Below are positions 25,649-64,000 of a stretch of 64,000 nucleotides of DNA, one piece after another. This DNA comes from Eledone cirrhosa (Eukaryota), in the NCBI GenBank assembly GCA_964016885.1, contig OZ024742.1:38936001-39000000 (forward strand), written 5' to 3'. Position numbers and translations under genes: made by a program. Below the pieces are notes generated by a model that was not told the origin of the DNA, did no database searches, and saw only the letters and a program-made list of their open reading frames with translations. Every line of letters begins with the position of its first letter. Within the stretch, counting starts at the first letter, position 1.

Positions 25649-27641
25649 CTGAGCACCTTTTTGATCTCCATGTGTCTAACACACGTGGACATGCCCACAA
25701 AGTCAGATAACAGCACAGTGACCTTGACTTTCGGGAACATTTTTTCACGCCCAGAGTTGCTGAAGCATGGAACAAACTACCTGCATCAGTTGTTAGCTGT
25801 CGAGACACTGCATCATTTAATACCTCCATGGAACAAACTACCTGCATCAGTTGTTAGCTGTCGAGACACCGCATCCTTTAAAACCTCCATGGAACCAACT
25901 ACCTGCATCAGTTGTTAGCTGTCGAGACACTGCATCCTTTAAAACCTCCATGGAACAAACTATCTGCATCAGTTGTTAGCTGTCGAGACACTGCATCCTT
26001 TAAAACCTCCATGGAACAAACTACCTGCAGCAGTTGTTAGCTGTTGAGACACTGCATCCTTTAATACCTCCATGGAACAAACTAGCTGCATCAGTTGTTA
26101 GCTGTCGAGACACCGCATCCTTTAAAACCTCCATGGAACAAACTACCTGCATCAGTTGTTAGCTGTCGAGACACTGCATCCCTTAAAACCTCCATGGAAC
26201 AAACTACCTGCATCAGTTGTTAGCTGTCGAGACACTGCATCCTTTAATACCTCCATGGAACAAACTACCTGCATCAGTTGTTAGCTGTCGAGACACTGCA
26301 TCCTTTAAAACCTCCATGGAACAAACTACCTGCATCAGTTGTTAGCTGTCGAGACACTGCATCCTTTAATACCTCCATGGAACAAACTACCTGCATTAGT
26401 TGTTAGCTGTCGAGACACTGCATCCTTTAAAACCTCCATGGAACAAACTACCTGCATCAGTTGTTAGCTGTCGAGACACTGCATCCTTTAAAACCTCAAT
26501 GGAACAAACTACCTGCATCAGTTGTTAGCTGTCGAGACACTGCATCCTTTAATACCTCCATGGAACAAACTACCTGCATCAGTTGTTAGCTGTCGAGACA
26601 CTGCATCCTTTAAAACCTTCATGGAACAAACTACCTGCATCAGTTGTTAGCTGTCGAGACACTGCATCCTTTAAAACCTCCATGGAACAAACTACCTGCA
26701 GAAGTTGTTAGCTGTCGAGACACTACACCCTTTAATACCTCCATGGAACAAACTACCTGCATCAGTTGTTAGCTGTCGAGACACTGCATCCTTTAAAACC
26801 TCCATGGAAAAAACTACCTGCAGCAGTTGTTAGCTGTCGAGACACTGCATCCTTCAAAATCTCCATGGAACAAACTACCTGCATCAGTTGTTAGCTGTCG
26901 AGACACTGCATCCTTTAATACCTCCATGGAACAAACTACCTGCATCAGTTGTTAGCTGTCGAGACACTGCATCCTTTAAAACCTCCATGGAACAAACTAC
27001 CTGCAGCAGTTGTTAGCTGTCGAGACACTGCATCCTTTAAAACCTCCATGGAACAAACTACCTGCATCAGTTGTTAGCTGTCGAGACACTGCATCCCTTA
27101 AAACCTCCATGGAACAAACTACATGAATCAGTTGTTAGCTGTCGAGACACTGCATCCTTTAATACCTCCATGGAACAAACTACCTGCATCAGTTGTTAGC
27201 TGTCGAGACACTGCATCCTTTAAAACCTCCATGGAACAAACTACCTGCATCAGTTGTTAGCTGTCGAGACACCGCATCCTTTAAAACCTCCATGGAACAA
27301 ACTACCTGCATCAGTTGTTATCTGTCGAGTCACTGCATCCTTTAAAACCTCCATGGAACAAACTACCTGCATCAGTTGTTAGCTGTCGAGACACTGCATC
27401 CTTTAAAACCTCCATGGAACAAACTACCTGCATCAGTTGTTAGCTGTCGAGACACTGCATCCTTTAAAACCTCCATGCTTCCTGAAAGTTGTCAACACTA
27501 CACCTGATATCCCCTCTCCATACACACATGCATATCATGACTCATACACTGTTCACTTTCCTGACATATATACTACACATGCACTTTTGACGAGTTGTAG
27601 TGCACGTGAGCACTGTACACAATAATTTCATAATTATTATT
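25621..27641 (+). mobile_element. 3' end of a CR1/L2-group LINE (ORF2 C-terminus, 3' UTR, short (ATT)n tail) containing the 61-bp array
   Basis: Frame from 25621 reads LINHLDNNNPEHLFDLHVSNTRGHAHKVR*QHSDLDFREHFFTPRVAEAWNKLPASVVSCRDTASF, matching the CR1 ORF2 end motif TRGH..K....R..FF..RV...WN.LP..VV.....SFK. After the array it resumes MLPESCQHYT* (TGA 27505-27507). Premature TAA at 25708. Confidence 0.88.
25766..27477. repeat. 61-bp minisatellite, 28 units (CATGGAACAAACTACCTGCATCAGTTGTTAGCTGTCGAGACACTGCATCCTTTAAAACCTC)
   Basis: First CATG at 25766, last at 27474; 1708 bp = 28 x 61, with only scattered substitutions. Confidence 0.98.
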
Positions 27642-30200: not shown

Positions 30201-31053
30201 CTAAGTTCTTGGCACTATATTGACATCGGGCCTATTTCTGCAGCTAATGCGGTTTCACGCGAATTTGCGCCAGTGAAATACCACTACTTCCATAGTCTCG
30301 TCAACACAGGATTTTCTGTATAGGCGGGGGCAGTCATAGTTTCCCAGTCATGTGCGCTGGTGTTTACTATGTCAAAGCAGCAAGTGCCTGAGGGTGGGGG
30401 TTTAGGTCTTGCCTTTTGCTGGAGGATTGAAAAGTCCCCTACGTGTACAGGAGAGGTTGTAAACTTGAAGGGCTGATTAAGGTGAGGATTTCACAAGACG
30501 AAGCAATCATGTATGTATGTATGTATGTATGTATGTATGTATGTATGTATGTATGTATGTTCTTCTGGTTTTATAATTTCACAAATTTTTTCCCAATAGA
30601 ATTTACACAACATCAACTAGGTAGATATGTATGTATGCATGCATGTGTAGATATGGATGTTATTGTATGTGTGGATGTGTATATTTTGAGTTGTATGTGC
30701 ATGTGTATATGCTTTGTATCTGTACATGTGTATATGCAGGATTGTACTTGTAGTTTCCTAACTAGTTGTGTTCTTTCTGTTCCTGTGAAGCCTAGCTTCT
30801 CAAGATTTGTATTGAGGCAGTTACTAACATATCCCAGTGCCCCAATAATCACAGGCATAAATCTGAAGGTGTAATCAGGGTGGAGTATCTACAGATTTCT
30901 CATCAGTTCTGCATAAATATTCTCCTTTTCACTAATCTTTGATATTATATTGACATCTGCTGGGAAGCTAATTTCCACTACTGTGCATGTTTTCTTCTCC
31001 CTGTCCCATATCATAATATCTGGTCTGTTATGCCTGCATTTTATTGGGGTTTA

Positions 31054-33552
31054 TTATGGAACATTCCACCAGTACTCTTTCATATTATATACATGGATGT
31101 CTTCCACATTGCTGTAGCTTTTAATGTGTTTATTATCGCGGCTATCTTTTTTACGAACTGCATTGTACAGCGTTTTGGCCACTACATCACGCCTCCTAGG
31201 TAGATAGTACCGCGATGACATCTTTGGGCAGCTGCTGATGACATGGGTGATATCCTCGATGTTAGTTCTGCAGAGTCTGCACTTGTTATCACATCTAGGT
31301 GTTTTGCCTGCATCCCTATCTCTTTTGTGAATCAGGTATTTCGTGCTAATCTCCTGTTCTTGGATTGCAAAAGCGTATCCTTCAAAGTGGGAGCCAATAT
31401 AGCGGTTGTTGGTCCAAGATAGACTACTTTCCTTATCTATATTACTCTCACTCTGGAGCTTCCTAGCAACATATCCATGCATGATTTTTTGCTGATAGAC
31501 ATGCAGTTTTTCATCCATGGATTCACTGCGATACTGCTGAGCGACATCCCTGGGTGTGAGTTTTTGATTATCACACAGGGAATATCTCTCGAGGAGTTCC
31601 TTCCCAGCTCTCATGATCTTATCTGTTTCATGCAGATAGACGTGCTCGAGAAGCGGGCTCCTACGCTTCGAGGTTCGTAGATGTTGTCGGAGAGATATGA
31701 TGCGACATTCAAATGTTGTCTGGACTGATGTTAGGCCTCTGCCTCCCTGCTTACGTTTCAAGTAAAGGCGGTCTATGTCACTGTTGATGTGGAAGTTTCC
31801 GGTGTTGTTCAGTATTTTTCGAGTTCCAACATCAACTGCTCGGATTTCGTCTATCGTCCAATTGAGTATTCCAAACGTTGGTGTTAGGACAGGCACAGCA
31901 AACACATTGTGAGCCACTGTTTTGTTTTGCGCAGAGAGTTCCGATGACCAGATCTTTCTTAATCGGGTGTAGTATTCCCTGGTTACGCGTTCTTTATTAC
32001 AGATACCATTATAGGATATGTTCTCATCTATCCCCAGGTATCTGTAGCAGTCCTCATCAGATATCGGTGAAACAGTTAGACCATTGATGACAATGTTGCT
32101 AGATTGGGTTGTTGTTTTTCCCCGCTTTACAGTCATGTATGAGCATTTATCTTGGCGAAACTCCATTCCTATATCCTTTGAGAACGTTGTAACCAGGTCA
32201 AGATTTTTCTTCATCCCATCCATGTTCTTGGCATAGAGTTTCAGATCGTCCACAAAGTTATGAGTTAGGTTCGTATTTCTGTCCTCCTGTGAGCCAATGA
32301 TGTATCCCTGACATTTCTTGAGCAGAAAGAACAAGGGGTTTAATGACAAGATGAACAATATCACAGAGAGACTGTCCCCCTGAAATATACCCCTGCAATA
32401 TTTTATTTTATCAGTGAAAATAGAGTCCTCCCTCTCTGTCTTTAACCTTAGGATAGTAGCCCAAGAAGAAGACAGCCTCTCTATGGCTCTGACAATAATG
32501 TCTGGGACTTTAGCAAGTTGGAGGGCCTCTATCATCCAAGAGTGGGGAACAGAATCGAAAGCTTTCTTGTAGTCCAGCCAGACTGTAATCATATTCCTCC
32601 TAAGTTGTCGCACCTCCGACATCGCAGTTTTGTTGATTAGGAGTTGTTCAGCACATCCCCAAACCCTTTTCTTTCCAGCTGCTTGTTCATCTGTGATGAT
32701 ATTATTATTTTCACAGTGATCTTGGAGGAATAGGTTCAGGCAGGTTGTATACATCTTATACATCAGGTTCTGGCATGCAATGGGTCGGTAGTTTTTTGCC
32801 AAGTGGGTGTCTTTGTTCTTGGGGACCAGTAACGTTTGTGCTAATGTCAACCATTCTGGTATAAGTGTATCTCCCTTAAGAACTTGTTGGTAGAGGTCAG
32901 TAAGATACCTCCGATAGAATATCAGTTTTTTGTACCAGTAGCCGACAATCATGTCTCTTCCTGGTGTTTTCTTATCTTGGAGTTTTCCTATCACAGTCTC
33001 AAGGGTACCCTCACTTATTTCATATGTTTTTGTTGTAGTGTAGGAGCAATAGTTCTTTCGGATTTCTCTAAGCCACACTGCATCTTGGTTGAAATTCTTC
33101 TTTTCCCCCCATATTTTTCTCCAAAAGGAATCTATGTCTTTCTGGGATGGGGCCTCAGTGACACTTATTATTTTGCCCTTCATATCTCTATAGACTGATG
33201 TTTGGTTTCGTCTGAATCTTTTATTAAGCATTTTTCTCTCATCTACCTTCTTCAGGTATCGGCGTTTTTCGCTAACAGCTCTCAATTCTTGTTTGATCGT
33301 GATCAGCTTATATTGGAGAGTTCTGGTTCTACTGTTACCAAACATCGTCTCTATTTTATTTTTCACTCTTTGTTGGTGAGGAGTGAGGTTTTTTTGTGTT
33401 TGTTTGCATGTAAGGAGCATTGTCACATGTCCTATGTTTTTTCGTAGGTCAGCACTCTTTTTTTCTATTTTAGTTATATATGATGGTATTTTTGGTGGTG
33501 TTTTGTTCTTGTTAATATCTCTGCTATCACCAAGATAATGCTTCACTGTCAT
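31054..33552 (-). pseudogene. Reverse transcriptase + CCHC + RLE endonuclease ORF of copy 1 (frameshifted near 31054, remnant continues to about 30740)
   Basis: Motifs PGRD, NYRPIAC, WLDYKKAFDSVPHSW, GIFQGDSLS, FVDDLKLY, YRYLG, GGRGL and CRLC-x7-HVISSC. The downstream RPD..VEIS..K remnant is in another frame. Confidence 0.92.
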
Positions 33553-33651: not shown

Positions 33652-33927
33652 TGTTGTATGGACTGGGAATCGAGCTCACAACCTCATTGTTGTGTGGACT
33701 GTTGGATTTCTATTCAATTTGCACGTGCTCGCACATTTGCATATGGATCACGTGACCTGGGCGGTCAGTCAGCGTTGGTGTTAAAAACTCGGTCACAGAC
33801 TGCCACTGACTTACTTTATGTTATTCTGCTACTGCGAGGAAGGGCGTTTTGGTTGTTTTGCAAATTACACAAATTATTTGATATAACTCGTTGTGTTTTC
33901 TCTGCGAGTACTGAGAGGAATACAACA
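33652..33927 (+). repeat. 5' LTR (276 bp)
   Basis: TG...CA termini with 7-bp terminal inverted repeats; differs from the 3' LTR by about 5 transitions and a 12-bp indel. Confidence 0.95.
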
Positions 33928-34011
33928 GAGTTTATTGGCGTCGCCGATAGGATTTACCTACATTGCTGATAGGATTTACCTACATTGCCGGGAAATTGTT
34001 TATCACAAAAA

Positions 34012-37000
34012 CATGGCGGAACAACAAACAACGGAGCTAATAAAGTTGTTTAGAGAACAGATGGAACAACAAATGCAACAACACAAGAAAGATATGGACA
34101 CTCTGATAAAACTGTTTGGTGCTCGAGATTCTGAACAACAGAGTTTATTGGCGTCGCCAGTTGCTTCGACACCAACAGCATTCATCCCACCATTTGCTGC
34201 TTTTGATTCAACAACAGAACTATGGCCTGATTACTGGTCAAGATTCTGCACGTTTGTGGCTGCTAACGCTGTACCCGAGCAACGCATGGCACAAGTGTTC
34301 CTGACTAATCAGACGGCTGCTATCTACAAACAACTTGCAAATCTGGCTGCTCAACAAAATCCGCCTAAGAATATCAACAAGTTGACAATGGACGAAATTG
34401 TTGACTTCATGAAAGAATAGTTCGACCCAAAACTTTTCATTGTGAGAGAACGTTTCAAGTTCTGGAGTGACATGTAACGGAAGCCAGGCGAAACTCTCCA
34501 GGATCTGGCAGCACGTATACGTCAGGATGCAGCTACCTGTGATTTTCCTTTGATCACAAATCCACAAGATGAAGCTTTAAGACAGAGATTTATATGTTCT
34601 GTCAATAATGAAACTGTGTTGAAGGCTATTTTCAAGATCAAGGATACAGAACTAGATTTCGCCCGTGCTGTCCAAGTTGCCATCGGGACCGAAGACGCAG
34701 CAAAGGTTGCCAAGGAAACTGTTTACGGTTCCAAAACCAAGCAACTCTACAAGGTCCAGCAGAACAAGAACAAGGGTCCTCGAAAGAACTATCAGCAGTC
34801 TTATTCCACAGACCAGGAGATGTGCTACCGATGTGGAAAGGCCCATAAAGCGACAGACTGCTCCTTCAAAGAAGCCAAATGTCATTTTTGTGACAAAAAG
34901 GGACATTTGCAAGCGATGTGTAGAAAGAAACAACATCAGCAACGTAATCATCGCTCACAGAATTACGTGAAAAGAATCACGAAAGCTGAGCTAGCCAAGG
35001 CGATCCTTGGTGAAGTTCCCCACGATACTCATAGTTTGAATGTGCCAATAACAATCCAGAACAGACTTTTCACAATGGAATTAGACACAGCTACTACAGG
35101 CAATTTTGTTTCCTTTTCAGTTTGGAAACAATTAGGAAAACCGAAGCTGCAAGATGTCAAACATCGGTTTGAATCTGCCAGCAAGCACGACCTGCCCGTT
35201 CTGGGAACTTTCATGGGCCAAACCAAGGATCCAACGACCGGTAAACGGAATTCAATACCCTACATCGTCACCAAGATCCCTGATCTTAATTTGCTGGGAC
35301 GAAACGCTATCCAGACTCTGGGAATTTCCGTAGACAATGCTCTAGGATTGAAAAGCATAGACAGCCAGGCCAAGAGTGAGGGTGCAGAAGTGATGCATCC
35401 AAAGACCTCAAATGAGCCCTATATTTCCATGCAACGAGATTGTCACAACATGTGTGATGAATTCCCAGATCTCTTCAAGCAAGAATTGGGATGTCTTAAT
35501 GACTTCGAACTGGAAGTGAAGTTCAAGTCGGACGCGACACCGGTCTTTCACAAGGCACGCCCGGTCCCGTTTGCTCTTCGTGATGACCTGGCCAAAGGTT
35601 ACGAAGAAGGCATCGCCAAAGAAATCTGGAAGCCAGTACAGTTCAACGAATACGGAACGCCAGTGGTACCGATTCGTAAAGCACATACTTCAGGCAACCT
35701 GAAGCCCAAACTACGGATTTGTGGTGACTACTCTGTGGGAATTAATGACCAACTTGCAGATCATCGTCATCCAATGCCACTCCCAGAGGAACTGATGCAG
35801 AAGCTCGGAGGTGGATTCGGATACACACAGATTGATCTTGCTGATGCCTATAATCAGATCAAGCTGGCTCCAGAAAGTCAACGCAGGCTTGCACTCAGCA
35901 CCTGGTTACTTTCAGGAGATCATGGAAAACCTGACTCAAGATCTACCTGGTGTGGCCGTCTTCCAGGACGACATGCTCGTCAGTGGGAAAGATGCAAACG
36001 ATCACCTGAACAACCTAAAGTGTCTGCTCACACGTCTGTGCGACAAAGGACTCAGATGTCGCTGTGACAAGTGCCAGTTTGCACTACCCAGTGTGGAATA
36101 CCTTGGACACACCTTGTCGGCTGAAGGGATCGCGAAGGGATCCAAGGTCGAAGCAGTTTTAAAGATGCCACCTCCAACGAACGTCTCAAGCTTGAAGTCT
36201 TTCCTGGGTTCAGTTCAGTTCTATGGAAAGTTTATCCCAAACCTGGCCAGCATGGCAGAGCCACTCTATTGCCTTACGAAAAAAACGACTACTTGGAAGT
36301 GGGGAGATGAAGAACAGTCAGCTTTCGATCAGTTGAAAAATGTGCTTTCATCGGATCGAGTTCTGATACACTTCGATCCAAACAAAACTTTGGGACTGGC
36401 TTGCGACGCGTCAAACGTTGGTATTGGAGCAGTCCTGTTTCATAGGTATACTGATGGAAGCGAGCGCCAATATCCAATGTGTCCAAGACTCTTACTTCTG
36501 CACAGCGTAACTACGGCTAAATTCAAAAGGAAGCCCTTGCCATCATATTTGGCTTGCAGAAGTTCTATCAGTATCTGTACGGACATCAGTTTATACTCGT
36601 AACTGACCACAAGCCACTGACATCACTGTTTAGTCCGAGGAAAGGGACGCCACTTCTCGCTGCTAACCGACTAGCACGGTGGGCCCTGTGGCTGAACCAG
36701 TTTGACTACACCATCGAATATCGGAAAACAGCGGATCATGGCAATGCAGATGCCCTCAGTCGCTTGCCATTTGGTAATGACATCGACTTTGACAGGAAGG
36801 AAAATGGTGAAGACATGGACATGGTGTGCGCCATCAAAGCTCTCAGTCTTCAAGTTCAACCTATCGATTCTAACGTCCTCCGTCAAGAGTCGGGGAAAGA
36901 TCCAGTGATATCTACAGTGATACGCTACGTCCGTGAAGGCTGGCCACCAAATAATATTGAGATCAATGACGAAGTCAATAAGTTCCGGAAGTTATCGGAT

Positions 37001-38175
37001 TCACTCAGTCTCTGCCACGGATGCCTTATCCATGGATCGAGAGTTGTGATTCCACATAGCTTACAGCCAAAGATCCTCAATCTTCTGCATCTCGGACACT
37101 TTGGCATGGAGCGCATGAAACAATTGGCAAGAACTGCTGTTTATTGGCCTGGTATCGATGCTGCTATAGAGAAAACCAGTCGACAATGTGATTCGTGTGG
37201 TGAACATCAAAACCAGCCATCCAAGTCTCCAGTTCACCCATGGATGTTACCTGAAAAGCCGTGGAGCCGCTTACACCTGGACCATGCAATAAATTTCATG
37301 AGCAGTAATTGGTTGGTGATCACGGATGCTTATTCCAAGTATCCATGCATTCATCCTACGTCATCCACGTCCTCCAGAGCCACTTTAGATCTGCTTGAAG
37401 AAGACTTTACGCACTTCGGATTTCCTCACCGATAACGCACCAACTTTTATTTCTGAGGAGTTTCAGAGCTGGGGCAAAGAACGTGGGATCACGCACCTGA
37501 CAGGGGCACCTTATCACCCAGCTACTAACGGAGCAGCGGAACGTTTGGTGCAGACCTTCAAACAAGCTCTGAGGAAGACTTCTCTTCCGCCGAAGCGAGC
37601 ACTTCAAGAGTTCTTGATGCAGTACCGGAGAACACCGACATCCAGTGGATTATCTCCGAGTGAACTTTTGAATCACCGGCAGATACGGACAAGGATTGAT
37701 TCTCTGCTGCCGTCGCCAAGGCAAGCAGTCTAAGGAAGCATATAAGTCTCAGATGACTCCGGACTCGGCAGGTGTCGCTAAGGTTACCAGGCAGTACAAG
37801 GCTGGAGATCCTGTGTATGCACTGTACTACGGACCTCGCCGAGACAAAGATCCCCGATGGGTACCAGCAATCATTAAGAAGTCATTGGGTACTCGCTGCT
37901 TCAACGTTAAGGTCATACCTCATGGCTCGGTGTGGAGACGACACTGGGAACAGCTGCAACCGCGGTACACTACTGAGGAAGACAATGAACCTGGTGATGC
38001 AGTAGACACTGTTTTTGAATTTGCAACAGATCACCCGATGGAGATCTCGGAAATCGTGCCACTAACTCCAAGACAGACCAGACCCAAGACCTTATTGCCC
38101 GTTCCAGAGTATGGACCAGACAATCGAAGACGGTCCAAGAGAACTCGTAAACCCCCAGAGAGACTTTGCTGTTGA
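34012..38175 (+). pseudogene. Disrupted gag-pol: Gag with two CCHC knuckles, protease, RT, RNase H, integrase
   Basis: CYRCGKAHKATDC and CHFCDKKGHLQAMC; MELDTA; RICGDY, IDLADAY, FQDD; DASNVGIGAVL; TDHKPL; HLGH..CDSC; DNAPTF..NGAAER. Stops near 34418 and 34475, several frameshifts and a deletion in RT near 35900. Confidence 0.95.
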
Positions 38176-43006: not shown

Positions 43007-43007
<1 letters not shown>

Positions 43008-43194
43008 CGAAGGAAAAGTGGTAAGGAACCAGGTGGACCATAACGCACCAAAGTACTCAATACTTAGGGTAGTAGAGTGGGTAATAGGAGTAAGTAAGAC
43101 CCCGACGGCTGACCTCAAGCCGTTTCGACGGCTAATTCTGAATTAGCCGTCGAAACGGCTTGAGCTCAGCCGTCGGGGTCTTACTTACTCCTAT
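43007..43194. mobile_element. Fold-back truncated copy of the 45509-46102 element family
   Basis: 77-nt tail plus 55-bp inverted arms (43084-43138 and 43140-43194) with a 1-nt loop. Each arm holds the 3' half of a hammerhead (GAAA CGGC..GCCG UC GGGG). Sits in (TA)n. Confidence 0.85.
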
Positions 43195-45462: not shown

Positions 45463-45510
<48 letters not shown>

Positions 45511-45601
45511 CAAAGGAATTGTGGTAAGGAACCAGATGGACCATAACGCACCAGAGTACTCAATACTTAGGGTAGTAGAGTGGGTAATAGGAAAAAGTCA
45601 T

Positions 45602-45695
45602 CCCCGACGGCAGAGCTCAAGCCGTTTCGAGGGCTATTTCTGGACTAAATTAGAATTTTTAGCCTGGTGAATAAATAGCCGAACTTGTCAAGGGG
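45602..45695 (-). ncRNA. Type I hammerhead, U3-A8 core, extended stem II (left arm)
   Basis: CCCC-UUGACAA-G UUCGGCUAUUU...AAAUAGCCCU C-GAAA-CGGC UUGAGCUCU GCCG-UC-GGGG. Confidence 0.78.
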
Positions 45696-45992
45696 TACTT
45701 CCTTATATGGGAAGATTGTAGTTGACTCCTACTCTCATTCGAATTACCTATTCTATAACTTCCCTCCTCCATTTTCTCCAGAACAATTTTTCGACTTTTC
45801 ATACACTATCCTTAGAATCTGCTGTATACATATCACTTTCAACGCTTGACCGGCTCCACTCACTCCCTCATTGTTCTACAGGCAAGTTCAGCCACCCCTA
45901 CCTCCCACCAAATGCCATGATAGACTTATTTGTGTTTACAACAAATTTTGACCAATCCTCTTGACAACTACAATCTTCCCATATAAGGAAGT

Positions 45993-46087
45993 ACCCTTGA
46001 CAAGTTCAGCTATTTATTCACCAGGCTAAAAGTTCTAATTTAGTCCAGAAATAGCCGTCGAAACGGCTTGAGCTCTGCCGTCGGGGT
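45993..46087 (+). ncRNA. Type I hammerhead, U3-A8 core, extended stem II (right arm)
   Basis: ACCC-UUGACAA-G UUCAGCUAUUU...AAAUAGCCGU C-GAAA-CGGC..GCCG-UC-GGGGU; predicted cleavage after 46082. Confidence 0.78.
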
Positions 46088-46097
46088 CATACTTTTT

Positions 46098-46150
<53 letters not shown>

Positions 46151-46538
46151 TTAGTCGAACCAAAGAGGGCTCCATAAGGATAAATATATATCAAATATAT
46201 AAGAATCCTAGAGCAAATATTATTTCCTCTCATTGCTGACGTATTATCTTCGCTTTTTTCCGTTCATTGCCAGGGAATGTCTTCACGAACCAAAGTATCC
46301 TCTTCCTGTTTTCCTTCGGCTGCAACTTTTTTTCGAAATATTTACTTCTACGTTTTATGTTTTCATAATGTCTTAATGCAGACAGCCAGACATACATACA
46401 GACAGACAGACATTCTCTGTTTTAGATATATAGATAAGTGTAAAAAGGTAAACAGAGATAACAAAAATAACAAAATCAAAACAGCACAGTACACGGTAGA
46501 AATATATTAGTTTAACGCTTGAAATAGCAGGAAGAGAG

Positions 46539-47697: not shown

Positions 47698-47701
<4 letters not shown>

Positions 47702-47904
47702 TTATTAAAATAACAGATTAAAGTTTAAGCAAAGAATCGCTGCTTTCACCCTTAACGGGATCTTCTGAAGATCCTGTTAAAGGTGAAAGCATCGATTCTT
47801 TGCTTAAACTTTAATCTGTTATTTTAATAAATATTTGCTCTACGGTTCTTATATATTTGATATATATTATCCTTATCGAGCCCTCTTTGGATTTTAGTCT
47901 TCAC
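47698..47904 (+). mobile_element. Fold-back hammerhead element: 68-bp inverted arms + 70-nt tail
   Basis: Arms 47698-47765 and 47767-47834. CUGAAGA-U CCU GUUAA AGG U-GAAA-GCA..UGC-UU at 47765-47805 lacks the 5' strand of stem I. The tail is homologous to the reverse complement of 46148-46225. Confidence 0.8.
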
Positions 47905-47939
47905 ATTTATTATTATTACTATATATATATATATATTAT

Positions 47940-48329: not shown

Positions 48330-49213
48330 GGAGATATGAGGTGGCGAGAATGCTTTGCTGTATTCGTCCCAACTCCTTGCTTCTCTGAGGTTTACTTTGC
48401 CTAAGTACCAGTCATATCCTCGGTTCCTCTCTTTCTTTGTGACTCTTTCCCACTTCCTCTCTTCACTGGATCAACCCCACTTTATCCTGACACACTGCAT
48501 GTTACAATGGCGCCACTATGACTCCATTAGGAGTTACGGGCACACACACACACACACGCGCGCGCACACATACACACACGCACATACACACACACACACG
48601 CGCGCGCGCGCGCACACATACACACACACACGCACACGCATACACACACACGCACACACATACACACACGCACATACACACACACACACACGCACACACA
48701 TACCCATACACACACACGCGCGCACACACACACACGCACACACATACACATACACACGCGCGCACACACACACACGCATACACATACACACACACACACA
48801 CGCGCGTACACACGCACACATACACACACACACGCACACACACACACACGCACACATATACACATACAAACGCGCGCACACACACGCACACACATACACA
48901 TACACACACGCGCACACACACGCACACATATACACATACACACGCGCGCACACACGCACACACACACGCGCGTACACACGCACACACACGCACACACACG
49001 CACACACGCACGCGCACACGCACACACACACGTATATCTGATACATTGTATATTATGTGGGCATGAATGTACATGTGTATATATGTAACGATAAACAGTG
49101 AATATATATAATCTACACATACATACAGTGAATATATATATATAATCCATACATACATGCATACATACATACATGCATACATACATAAATGTATACATAC
49201 ATACATACATACA
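47905..49213. repeat. (TA)n, (GA)n, (CA)n/(CG)n and (CATA)n low-complexity tracts
   Basis: Read directly; one short unique stretch at 48335-48540. Confidence 0.88.
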
Positions 49214-51930
49214 TTCAAACACAAAAAACCCTCACTCCTCACCAACAAAGAGTGAAAAATAAAATAGGGACGATGTTTGGTAACAGTAGAACCAGAACTC
49301 TCCAATATAAGCTGATCACCCTCAAACAAGAATTGAGAGCTGTTAGCGAAAAACGCCGATACCTGAAGAAGGTAGATGAGAGAAAAATGCTTAATAAAAG
49401 ATTCAGACGAAACCAAACATCAGTCTATAGAGATATGAAGGGCAAAATAATAAGTGTCACTGAGGCCCCATCCCAGAAAGACATAGATTCCTTTTGGAGA
49501 AAAATATGGGGGGAAAAGAAGAATTTCAACCAAGATGCAGTGTGGCTTAGAGAAATCCGAAAGAACTATTGCTCCTACACTACAACAAAAACATACGAAA
49601 TAAGTGAGGGTACCCTTGAGACTGTGATAGGAAAACTCCAAGATAAGAAAACACCAGGAAGAGACATGATTGTCGACTACTGGTACAAAAAACTAATATT
49701 CTATCGGAGGTATCTTATTGACCTCTACCAACAAGTTCTTAAGGGAGATACACTTATACCAGAATGGTTGACATTAGCACAAACGTTACTGGTCCCCAAG
49801 AACAAAGATACCCACTTTGCAAAAAACTACCGAGCCATTGCATGCCAGAACCTGATGTATAAGATGTATACAACCTGCCTGAACCTATTCCTCCAAGATC
49901 ACTGTGAAAATAATAATATCATCACAGATGAACAAGCAGCTGGAAAGAAAAGGGTTTGGGGATGTGCTGAACAACTCCTAATCAACAAAACTGCGATGTC
50001 GGAGGTGCGACAACTTAGGAGGAATATGACTACAGTCTGGCTGGACTACAAGAAAGCTTTCGATTCTGTTCCCCACTCTTGGATGATAGAGGCCCTCCAA
50101 CTTGCTAAAGTCCCAGACATTATTGTCAGAGCCATAGAGAGGCTGTCTTCTTCTTGGGCTACTATCCTAAGGTTAAAGACAGAGAGGGAGGACTCTATTT
50201 TCACTGATAAAATAAAATATTGCAGGGGTATATTTCAGGGGGACAGTCTCTCTGTGATATTGTTCATCTTGTCATTAAACCCCTTGTCCTTTCTGCTCAA
50301 GAAATGTGAGGGATACATCATTGGCTCACAGGAGGACAGAAATACGAACCTAACTCATAACTTTGTGGACGATCTGAAACTCTATGCCAAGAACATGGAT
50401 GGGATGAAGAAAAATCTTGACCTGGTTACAACGTTCTCAAAGGATATAGGAATGGAGTTTCGCCAAGATAAATGCTCATACATGACTGTAAAGCGGGGAA
50501 AAACAACAACCCAATCTAGCAACATTGTCATCAATGGTCTAACTATTTCACCGATATCTGATGAGGACTGCTACAGATACCTGGGGATAGATGAGAACAT
50601 ATCCTATAATGGTATCTGTAATAAAGAACGCGTAACCAGGGAATACTACACCCGATTAAGAAAGATCTGGTCATCGGAACTCTCTGCGCAAAACAAAACA
50701 GTGGCTCACAATGTGTTTGCTGTGCCTGTCCTAACACCAACGTTTGGAATACTCAATTGGACGATAGACGAAATCCGAGCAGTTGATGTTGGAACTCGAA
50801 AAATACTGAACAACACCGGAAACTTCCACATCAACAGTGACATAGACCGCCTTTACTTGAAACGTAAGCAGGGAGGCAGAGGCCTAACATCAGTCCAGAC
50901 AACATTTGAATGTCGCATCATATCTCTCCGACAACATCTACGAACCTCGAAGCGTAGGAGCCCGCTTCTCGAGCACGTCTATCTGCATGAAACAGATAAG
51001 ATCATGAGAGCTGGGAAGGAACTCCTTGAGAGATATTCCCTGTGTGATAATCAAAAACTCACACCCAGGGATGTCGCTCAGCAGTATCGCAGTGAATCCA
51101 TGGATGAAAAACTGCATGTCTATCAGCAAAAAATCATGCATGGATATGTTGCCAAGAAGCTCCAGAGTGAGAGTAATATAGATAAGGAAAGTAGTCTATC
51201 TTGGACCAACAACCGCTATATTGGCTCCCACTTTGAAGGATACGCTTTTGCAATCCAAGAACAGGAGATTAGCACGAAATACCTGATTCACAAAAGAGAT
51301 AGGGATGCAGGCAAAACACCTAGATGTGATAACAAGTGCAGACTCTGCAGAACTAACATCGAGGATATCACCCATGTCATCAGCAGCTGTCCAAAGATGT
51401 CATCGCGGTACTATCTACCTATGAGGCATGATGTAGTGGCCAAAACACTGTACAATGCAGTTCGTAAAAAAGATAGCCGCGATAATAAACACATTAAAAG
51501 CTACAACAATGTGGAAGACATCCATGTACATAATATGAAAGAGTACTGGTGGAATGTTTCAGTAAAAACCCCAATAAAATGCAGGCATAACAGACCAGAT
51601 ATTATGATATGGGACAGGGAGAAGAAAACATGCACAGTAGTGGAAATTAGCTGCCCAGCAGATGCCAATATAATATCAAAGTTTAGTGAAAAGGAGAACA
51701 TTTATGCAGAACTGATGAGAAATCTGTAGATACTCCACCCCGATTACACCTTCAGATTTATGCCTGTGATTGTTGGGGCACTGGGATATCTTAGTAACTG
51801 CCTCAATACAAATCTTGAGAAGCTGGGCTTCACAGGAACAGAAAGAACACAACTAGTTAGGAAACTACAAGTACAATCCATTAATGGAACAATAAAAATA
51901 TGTAAAACATTCCAAAAATGTTGCATCTAA
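49213..51930 (+). pseudogene. RT-CCHC-RLE ORF of copy 2; open to TAG 51727, then 66 more in-frame codons
   Basis: RT motifs as in copy 1; CRLC..HVISSC, RHD, RPDI..VEISCP..KENIY. After the TAG: ILHPDYTFRFMPVIVGALG...KCCI*. Confidence 0.92.
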
Positions 51931-55569: not shown

Positions 55570-55653
55570 TTTTACGCGTTTCGCAGAGGATTGGCTCAGG
55601 GTCACCCATATGAGTTATGGACCCGACTCCATTATCGATCTGCTCTTCAGACT
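55570..55653 (-). ncRNA. Hammerhead core with long stem II and weak stem I, in a 145-bp island between (TA)n runs
   Basis: CUGAAGA-GCAGA...UCUGC-GAAA-CGCG-UA; palindromic stem III ACGCGU; stem I pairs poorly. Confidence 0.65.
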
Positions 55654-55678
55654 GGCGATGCGACAAAAATATCACCTA

Positions 55679-55738
<60 letters not shown>

Positions 55739-55743
<5 letters not shown>

Positions 55744-56057
55744 AAAGAATAGAGGTGTAACACACAAGTTATTATATATTGGTAAACGGAATAGTAAATG
55801 CTGACAAATTGTTCACAGTTGAAAAATGGTTTAATTAGGAATAAAAGAGTATTAGTGATTGTATGGGTTAGCAAACAACACGGACACTCTATCTCAAAAT
55901 TATTTTTGAAAAGCATTTAGAAATGCGCAACCGGTAAAAACTTAAAAACTTAAAACCACAACTGAATACTAAACCATACAATTACTAATACTCTTTTATT
56001 CCTAATTAAACCATTTTTCAACTATGAACAATTTGACAGCATTTACTATTCCGTTTA

Positions 56058-56066
<9 letters not shown>
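55739..56066. mobile_element. Tail + about 98-bp inverted arms + spacer with a U3-A8 hammerhead, in (TA)n
   Basis: Arms about 55775-55871 and 55968-56066; 35-nt tail. UUU-UUGAAAA-GCAU UUAGAA AUGC-GCAA-CCGG-UA-AAA at 55903-55939, with GAAA mutated to GCAA. Confidence 0.78.
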
Positions 56067-56093
<27 letters not shown>

Positions 56094-60665: not shown

Positions 60666-60812
60666 GTGAAGGCGCATGGCTTAGTGGTTAGAGCATTGGG
60701 CTTACAATCGAAAGGTTGTGAGTTCAATTCTCGGACCGGGTGATGTGTTGTCTCCTTGAGCAAGACACTTTATTTCACATTGCTCCAGTTTACTCAGCTG
60801 TAGAAATGAGAT
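60666..60812 (+). mobile_element. tRNA-derived SINE (CORE-like)
   Basis: TGGCTTAGTGGTTAGAGCA A-box, GAGTTCAATTC B-box, CCTTGAGCAAGACACTTTATTTCAC. Confidence 0.75.
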
Positions 60813-62394: not shown

Positions 62395-64000
62395 TTTTCT
62401 TTATTAACCACAAGGGTTTACATAAAGTAGACATTAAGGACAGTACAGGACAATACAGGACGGTACAAATGGGCATTTCTGCGTGTAAAAAAAACAGAGG
62501 ATGAAATAAAATAACAAAGAAAAATTCCCCAATAGGGGGGAGACTTCCGAGGGACATTTGTGGAGAAAGCCCATTAAAAGACCACAGTGGCCCTGACCAC
62601 CAGGGCAAGTGCCCTCTCCCAGTTTTCCACCTTTAATTTACAGACACATACTCAGAGAAGGCCCATTCATTCGGGCCATACTTGCTTCTCTCACCCATCT
62701 TTCAACAAAATGCTGGGAAGAGAGCACTTCCCTCTCTACCCTGATTTTCCTTTTCAGATGAAATTTGAAAAAGTTAATCAGAGCATCACCGAAGAGGTAA
62801 GTGCTCGTCTTCAGCCCTTTCAAACGCGTCCACCATACTATCTCTTTCGCCATGGCCACCAGACAGATAAAAACTGCCTGCCCTTCCCGGCTAAAGGAAG
62901 AGGGCGGGGCAATCCTCACGATGGACTCAGCTGATAGCTGGATCCGTCCTACACGTGACAGCAGGTGTTCGACATAAACCCACAAGTCAGCAATGCTCGG
63001 ACACTGGACGAGTGCGTGCAGGACGGTTTCGTCGCCCTGTGCGCATCTCGGACATGCCCGGCTGACGGCACCTCCATGTCTGTAAAGTTAATCCCGAACT
63101 GGCAAAGCACCCCGGTAGCACTGCCAGGCCAGGGATTTCTGGAAGTTGTCCATAGGCCCCGGCCCGAAAGTCCTTCCGAAGAGATTGGCTAGTTGATTTT
63201 CGTCGACGCCTAGAGTTTCTCCAAGTACGTCCTCGCTCTTCCCCTCCACTAATCCCCTATAGAACGCCAAGGTGGAGTTTCCACCGATCAGATTGCCCGA
63301 TTGGCCGAGGGCTGTGAGCGCCTGAAGACATTCCAGTCTCCAAGCGCTCCTTCTCGGTCTTCGCTTGACCCAGGACTGCAGCTCCGTCAAGGAGACGAGC
63401 TGGGGAAATACGTGTCTAGCAAACGGCGACCACATCTGATCACCGTCGAGGAAGAGGTGGAGATGTCGTAGCCTGAGCGCGTGTCTGCGCATCATCAGCC
63501 ACGGCATGCCCAGCCCTCCACGTAGCGGGTGTTGACAGCAGATGGACCTCCTGACCATCGGAGCGCGTCCCTTCCACAAGAAGCGAAAGAGCAAACGCTC
63601 CAGCGCAGTCAGGCGGGGCTTAGGACAAGGTACGACGGTCAGGCGGTAGTAGATGACGGACGCGATGTACGCGTTAACCACCTCCGCTCGACCTTTCAGG
63701 GATAGCTTCCTCTCGGCCCATTTCTGGGTGAGAGAAGCCACCCTGCTCGTCACCTCGTCCCAGTTTTTGTCCGTCTGGAGGTCTGGACCGAACCAGACCC
63801 CTAGCAATTTAACCGGTCCGTCCGTCCAGCGCCCGACGACGCTGTTGGACGGCATGGACCTGCCTCTCCAGGTGCCGAGCTGCAGGCCCACTGACTTTTC
63901 CTGGTTGATCATTGCTCCTGTCACCGCTTCGTATTCTCTTAGTGTAGTGCCGATCGCCTCGATGTGTTTGGCGTTCGACACCACTACGGTGACATCGTCG
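62361..64000 (-). mobile_element. L1/Tx1-clade LINE, 3' part (end of RT, CCHC domain, 3' UTR, (ATT)n tail), open at the right edge
   Basis: DDVT, INQEKS, LLGVWFG, LSLKGR, GGLG; AATAAA before the (ATT)n tail at 62361-62392. Confidence 0.9.
62638..63999 (-). pseudogene. Tx1-like ORF2 C-terminal half with one in-frame stop
   Basis: ORF 63984-63088 continues in frame past TAA as LYRHGGAVSRACPRCAQGDETVLHALVQC and into ORF 62985-62638. Confidence 0.85.

Follow-up and report, generated by a model that had tools for sequence, protein, structure and literature searches.

The element at positions 45509-46102 of the 64-kb window (the whole stretch of DNA analysed here) is an ordinary dead, non-coding fragment. 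With a probability of roughly 0.7, we read it as a Hydra-clade Penelope-like element (PLE) that inserted head to head, doubly 5'-truncated, into a (TA)n microsatellite, likely when both cut target strands primed reverse transcription at sites 78 nt apart. PLEs are the sister group of telomerase. The inverted layout, the U3-A8 hammerhead cores and the presence of hammerheads on opposite strands have all been published for PLEs, and what is added here is a statistical rule: in 71 of 73 scored inverted insertions, exactly one of the two ends carries a tail. The origin of the inverted ends and one-sided tails of PLEs is stated as open in the literature (Craig et al., 2021, PMC8557442; Frangieh et al., 2024, PMC11167929). 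A literature search found neither a count of tails per insertion nor a twin-priming model for PLEs; subscription papers and the supplements of PMC11167929 and PMC4209133 may contain either.

Self-comparison of the focal element places two inverted arms at 45587-45724 and 45965-46102, 95% complementary over 140 columns, bearing out the two 138-bp arms, as well as the 78-nt tail on one arm only, that had been described in an earlier, sequence-only reading of this DNA. The target microsatellite is recognizable in the sequence as (TA)n on the left (45468..45510, with the last 2-4 nt ambiguous with the element end) and on the right (46101..46147), neither assigned a strand. Between them, the sequence and the family copies delimit the tail on the minus strand (45511..45588), which separates the short end of the PLE unit from its long end, followed by the left arm, also on the minus strand (45589..45724), which is the 3' end of the unit truncated about 212 nt from its long end. 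The right arm, on the plus strand (45722..46100), comprises the last 379 nt of the unit and ends at the short, untailed end; measured upstream from the long end, the left arm extends over 212 nt and the right arm over 455 nt. The apparent spacer at 45725-45964 is 3' UTR sequence found only in the longer, right arm. The head-to-head junction (45722..45726, no strand) was located by comparison with family copies, which share a 5-nt microhomology there on both sides; the focal copy carries one substitution in it. Because both arms are the 3' end of a unit encoding a reverse transcriptase (RT) and a GIY-YIG endonuclease (EN), the focal element is, on comparison with these copies, composed of two truncated 3' ends from one PLE unit, which meet head to head at the microhomology. 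A lone tail of an unrelated palindromic family, described below, abuts its right flank (46147-46221). Contigs from sequencing runs that match the focal element are too short to span it.

It is close to certain that the focal element is a PLE. The sequence-only reading had recognized inverted Penelope pseudo-LTRs and proposed a search for relatives with RT and GIY-YIG; such relatives were found, physically linked to the focal end, and the pseudo-LTR reading stands on that linkage. At five loci (L032, L031, L034, L109 and L112) the focal end, 87-97% identical to the window core, occurs with RT/EN frames on the same strand, although in the window subfamily the linked frames are broken. The genome searched comprised 3.0 Gb in 1,796 contigs. 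A search with the focal element returned 4,525 candidates, of which 40 were scored, with long matches 94-97% identical and starting at the junction, while a protein search returned 42,117 candidates, of which 150 were scored, many of them in open frames of 770-795 codons. These frames belong to a young sister subfamily with the core UUGAGAA, which has intact 716-719-aa ORFs arranged in direct tandem arrays with a period of 3,542-3,543 bp. Both in the ORF and in the final 200 nt, the sister and window subfamilies are 84-88% identical, and no alignment was obtained across most of the 3' UTR. Exact 19-nt core patterns occurred 883 times in the window-type form and 2,208 times in the sister-type form, with no occurrence of reversed controls.

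The sister ORF carries the motifs RWR (position 37), DKT (117), YRDD, WFNPP, CxCx5C (572), YIG, CxxC (670) and CxH (698), which match the Hydra rows of Fig. S7 of Craig (2021, PMC8557442) when aligned by eye. As in EN+ PLEs, there is a single ORF in which a telomerase-like RT is joined by a GIY-YIG domain at the C-terminus, together with partial-tandem pLTRs, inverted 5'-truncated copies and an optional tail. The Hydra-clade PLEs described in PMC8557442, such as Hydra-1_Obim and Penelope-13_HM, likewise combine RT with a GIY-YIG domain at the C-terminus in one ORF and have DKT (a modified DKG), the CxCx5C linker and CxxC and CxH around a conserved E and N. They also share (TA)n targets, into which nearly all listed termini run here, and a sense-strand type I hammerhead near the 3' end. 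The N-terminal motif is RWR here in place of the RWK of the Hydra clade, a conservative variant at the aligned position. The unit is 3,542 bp long (3.5 kb, with a 1.2-kb 3' UTR) and has a UUGANAA core, whereas Hydra-clade elements are "generally <3 kb" and have a CUGANGA hammerhead; both of these Hydra traits are descriptive rather than diagnostic in PMC8557442. A structure model of the ORF built from an alignment of 47 sequences reached a pLDDT of 89, with telomerase RT as the best PDB match (E 1.5e-8); a single-sequence model (pLDDT 32) was discarded in favour of it. Pfam gave a weak GIY-YIG match (E 0.026) but nothing meaningful, and no GIY-YIG, for the whole intact ORF and five homologues; a PDB sequence-profile search with the ORF gave 0 matches, and the Atlas neighbours of the ORF carry GIY-YIG/RVT_1 in part. 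These comparisons point to a new family of the known Hydra clade, the clade being assigned by motifs compared by eye. A bacterial promoter scan gave hits at chance level and is irrelevant here.

Across copies, there are two fixed positions at which termini occur, lying 18 and 96 nt beyond the predicted hammerhead cleavage site, and among the first 30 matches listed on contig C1, 14 ends were tailed and 16 short. In tandem copies the tail continues into the 5' region of the ORF that follows. Scoring used divergent hammerhead pairs on C1 no more than about 6 kb apart. They were drawn from the first 100 matches listed for three patterns, with an intact core required in both arms of every scored pair, and yielded 75 inverted loci, two of which (L149 and L220) were dropped when an end was not reached. 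Among the remaining 73, no insertion was tailed at both ends and two (L152 and L169) were untailed; one-tailed insertions made up 6/6, 37/39 and 28/28 in the three pattern sets, while an independent choice of ends would give one tail in half of the insertions. The second arm of L016, which looked two-tailed, actually runs on into the ORF, and L169, with its mirror-image flanks, is probably a later inverted duplication. Separate end-pattern lists gave a similar picture, with divergent end pairs combining a short end and a tail in 24/24 cases at less than 1 kb and in 27/29 at less than 6.5 kb; two pairs of tail-tail neighbours in these lists lie 2.6 and 6.2 kb apart. Genome-wide counts of short and tailed ends (7,551 vs 23,288) were left out of the argument because the tail pattern is common to more subfamilies than the short-end pattern.

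The lengths of the two arms vary independently of the tail. In 27 sister loci, the tailed arm reached further in 11, the untailed arm in 12, and the two were equal in 4. Whether spacer length varies among copies had been posed as a check on the sequence-only reading, and arms and spacers indeed vary freely, from tens of bases to more than 5 kb; no uniform TIR element emerged among the copies. Junctions could be resolved in 15 of 26 cases, leaving 11, and comprised overlaps of at least 3 nt in 5/15 (5% expected by chance), overlaps of 1-2 nt in 2/15, a blunt join in 1/15 and 1-6 extra bases in 7/15. Arms of the same insertion were more alike than arms of different insertions in one group (identity 0.965 vs 0.925) but barely so in the window subfamily (0.948 vs 0.942). 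The divergent end pairs included 22/29 that were 151-193 bp apart and formed near-symmetric palindromes. Over the first 26 Mb of C1, short sister-type insertions were likewise mostly near-symmetric hairpins with both arms stopping inside stem II, and such stops may reflect stalling at the ribozyme fold.

When both strands were scanned with a descriptor, the 64-kb window proved to hold exactly two full hammerheads, one per focal arm, in agreement with the sequence-only claim of a complete U3-A8 hammerhead on each strand. The minus-strand motif (type I; 45602..45695) has U3 at 45691, G12 at 45628 and its predicted cut 3' of C17 at 45606; the plus-strand motif (type I; 45994..46086) has U3 at 45997, G12 at 46060 and C17 at 46082, with the predicted cut between 46082 and 46083, 18 nt before the short end. 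Both consist of a UUGACAA core followed by a 56-nt stem II region and GAAA, stem III (CGGC/GCCG) with a 9-nt loop, a GUC triplet and stem I (CCC(C)/GGGG). All the elements of a type I hammerhead are therein present (core positions 3-9, G12-A15.1, U16.1-H17, G10.1-C11.1 and stems I-III), including the Watson-Crick 3-8 pair, which is U3-A8 in both arms. Rfam returned no hammerhead match in the focal motifs at its gathering threshold. Position 7 differs among subfamilies and A8 is invariant in 100/100 among the matches listed, a pattern that a hammerhead would allow. Covariation in 18 close sequences exceeded that in shuffles but is thin among the close subfamilies, coming mostly from one distant, partly misaligned row.

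In isolation, the minus arm is predicted to adopt the hammerhead fold with P 0.21, while the plus arm, whose hammerhead is weakened by substitutions, is predicted to misfold (P 7e-6); in a typical family copy about a quarter of the predicted ensemble is in the hammerhead fold. A competing hairpin that buries GAAA dominates the predictions for the plus arm, for a C3-A8 lineage and for a wider sister context. Loop III keeps a palindrome that would also permit a dimer. RNA of the whole element is predicted to form one long hairpin (-272.9 kcal/mol, z -22.8; 0/100 shuffles as stable), and in read-through RNA from either strand the antisense arm is transcribed first, so such RNA would be expected to be locked in a 138-bp duplex. 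The snap-back that the sequence-only reading had foreseen as blocking the ribozyme thus holds as a prediction; a two-state switch by design is not supported, since the two hammerheads come from two truncated copies of the same 3' end and the snap-back is a by-product. The hammerhead belongs to the end of the PLE unit, and at the focal locus both copies are passengers. In tandem arrays the predicted cleavage point is some 190 nt upstream of the ATG that follows; cleavage there would convert multi-unit transcripts into unit-length RNA, a role proposed for PLE hammerheads by Cervera and De la Pena (2014, PMC4209133). A mismatched C3-A8 core occurs in 39/100 among the matches listed (the first 100 of 2,371), for example at L051, L187, L194 and L198, and is present in both arms of 8/8 inverted pairs; these counts argue that a PLE lineage with a broken 3-8 pair was copied and spread. 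No long intact ORF was seen at the C3-A8 loci. At L111:9048-9159, on the minus strand, lies a motif of a more distant family; it has U3-A8, its stem II region spans 57 nt, and its stem III is palindromic and has no loop.

In the mechanism that we consider probable, the PLE protein, possibly as a dimer of the kind predicted for the related Poseidon_Ac (PMC11167929), would cut both strands of the (TA)n target. Each 3'-OH would then prime cDNA synthesis, the first at the tail end and the other 78 nt upstream of it; both priming sites share 2-4 nt with the TA repeat. The two cDNAs would stop independently of each other, and their 3' ends would be joined through microhomology or a few added bases. 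The chief alternative retains the same Hydra-clade PLE but derives the inversion from fold-back self-priming of cDNA or antisense template and the tail from staggered endonuclease resolution, and both steps have precedents, self-priming on an antisense template having been proposed in PMC3846280 and EN-mediated resolution as the source of the tail in PMC8557442. Staggered resolution could likewise yield exactly one tail, zero-spacer palindromes are common, arms are equal in 4/27 loci, and the near-symmetric short palindromes (22/29 end pairs, and the insertion at 43007) are explained equally well by fold-back. Simple fold-back nevertheless cannot yield an untailed arm that reaches further than its tailed partner, the arrangement seen in 12/27 loci and in the focal element itself; most resolved junctions, moreover, are short overlaps or added bases without palindromes. 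The one-tail rule, taken with the independent arm lengths, therefore favours two coupled primings over simple fold-back, which we regard as unlikely, though staggered resolution of another intermediate may be the source of the tail. Arms of one insertion also share subfamily variants, as seen in the C3 cores of the 8/8 pairs and in the closer within-insertion match of one group. Coupled priming fits the two RT start sites, two-strand extension and predicted dimer of Poseidon_Ac; against it, the in vitro work in PMC11167929 saw neither a difference between strands in the start sites used nor homology of those sites to the target. We give even odds to a stronger form of the idea, in which PLEs would integrate by obligatory two-ended priming, one RNP using two fixed RNA sites and always one of each, the tail being the footprint of an asymmetric dimer and the head-to-head inversion the default product.

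Two further explanations treat the inverted pair as a unit in its own right. It is very improbable that the pair is a selected riboswitch- or retrozyme-like unit, toggling between self-cleavage and a hairpin and mobilised whole: it does have two complete cores, a strong predicted hairpin and arms that retain their stems, yet its junction is unique to this locus among the 40 scored matches, arm and spacer lengths vary continuously across copies, the arms are 5% diverged like any two copies, and the plus arm is predicted to misfold. Derivation from a MITE or other DNA transposon with long terminal inverted repeats inserted at TA would account for the inverted ends and the TA flanks, but the ends are asymmetric and the copies lack the symmetric, fixed-length TIRs and uniformity of such elements; no transposase frame is linked in the translated loci, and RT-GIY-YIG units arranged in 3,542-bp direct tandem arrays end in this very sequence at their 3' side, a linkage that effectively refutes this explanation. 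A non-LTR retrozyme was also considered and rejected, as this would need direct tandem small hammerhead monomers, whereas here the insertion is single and inverted and the tandem units are 3.5-kb coding PLEs. Like the focal element, non-LTR retrozymes are non-coding and PLE-derived and carry type I hammerheads, but they are direct tandem repeats with a fixed monomer rather than one-off inverted truncation products (bioRxiv 10.64898/2026.07.22.740005).

The same layout had also been reported to recur at 43007, 47698 and 55739. An inverted-plus-tail layout is present at all three sites, but only the first is related to the focal element. It is a separate insertion of the sister subfamily (43007..43194, no strand; 93% identity), consisting of a tail and a zero-spacer palindrome and cut before core positions 3-9, which it lacks. 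The second (47698-47930) is an unrelated tailed palindrome in (TA)n with a CUGAAGA core at its centre, further copies of which were observed in L116, L125 and L031. The third (55739-56067) is an unrelated inverted pair with a tail of about 35 nt and related copies in L017 and L019, in which no full hammerhead passed the descriptor scan. Nearby, at 55570-55660 on the minus strand, TA runs enclose a minimal CUGAAGA hammerhead-like motif whose stem III is palindromic.

PMC8557442 and PMC3846280 describe inverted pLTRs whose tail is "often only at one end", and Penelope-13_HM (PMC8557442) offers an inverted 5'-truncated copy with a hammerhead on both strands, as here. The tail is 78 nt in the new family, compared with the 30-40 bp quoted for PLEs. 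All 26 rows (25 families) of Hydra hammerheads in File S2 of PMC8557442 have a CUGA core, a short stem II and a 1-3-nt loop III, while in the new family the core is U3-A8 (0/26 rows), the stem II region extends over 56 nt and loop III has 9 nt. The Cercyon PLEs of Schistosoma also have U3-A8 hammerheads (about 1,300 matches), and opposite-strand dual hammerheads 100-700 bp apart have been reported there (Cervera and De la Pena, 2014); they are without helix III and need dimers, whereas the stem III of 4 bp plus an A-U pair found here makes a monomer fold possible. Poseidon_Ac, from another clade, has two RT start sites that bound the tail, and both target strands are cut and extended; its hammerhead lies upstream of the start sites and is dispensable in vitro, and its tail lies inside the ORF rather than upstream of the ATG as here (Frangieh et al., 2024). 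Tails per insertion are not counted in the sections of that paper covered here.

What separates twin priming from simple fold-back is that the one-tail rule is nearly strict while arm lengths are independent, and this yields a sharp prediction for in vitro work. The naturally occurring C3-A8 lineage is relevant to the question of whether cleavage is required of PLE hammerheads. A ready test system for two-ended priming exists in the thousands of young Hydra-clade copies, which include intact ORFs as well as U3-A8 and mismatched C3-A8 lineages, and the same copies could test whether ribozyme cleavage matters at all.

Elsewhere in the window, positions 1-25648 hold 951 copies of a 27-bp satellite with 93% matches and a strong skew between strands; after it comes an array in which a 61-bp unit is repeated 28 times (25766-27477). 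Two copies of a non-LTR RT ORF, 99% identical and in opposite orientation (30739-33412 and 49206-51879), have open frames of 841 and 846 aa with RVT_1, a C-terminal Cys/His motif and a restriction-like nuclease-type motif, and may belong to an R4-like clade. Frameshifted remains of an LTR retrotransposon, with RT, RNase H and integrase zinc-finger matches, lie at 33887-38175. At 62638-63999 on the minus strand, a further non-LTR RT ORF is represented by its C-terminal part, which gives a weak zf-RVT match, and a marginal tRNA match (29.3 bits) at 60677-60734 is possibly a SINE head.
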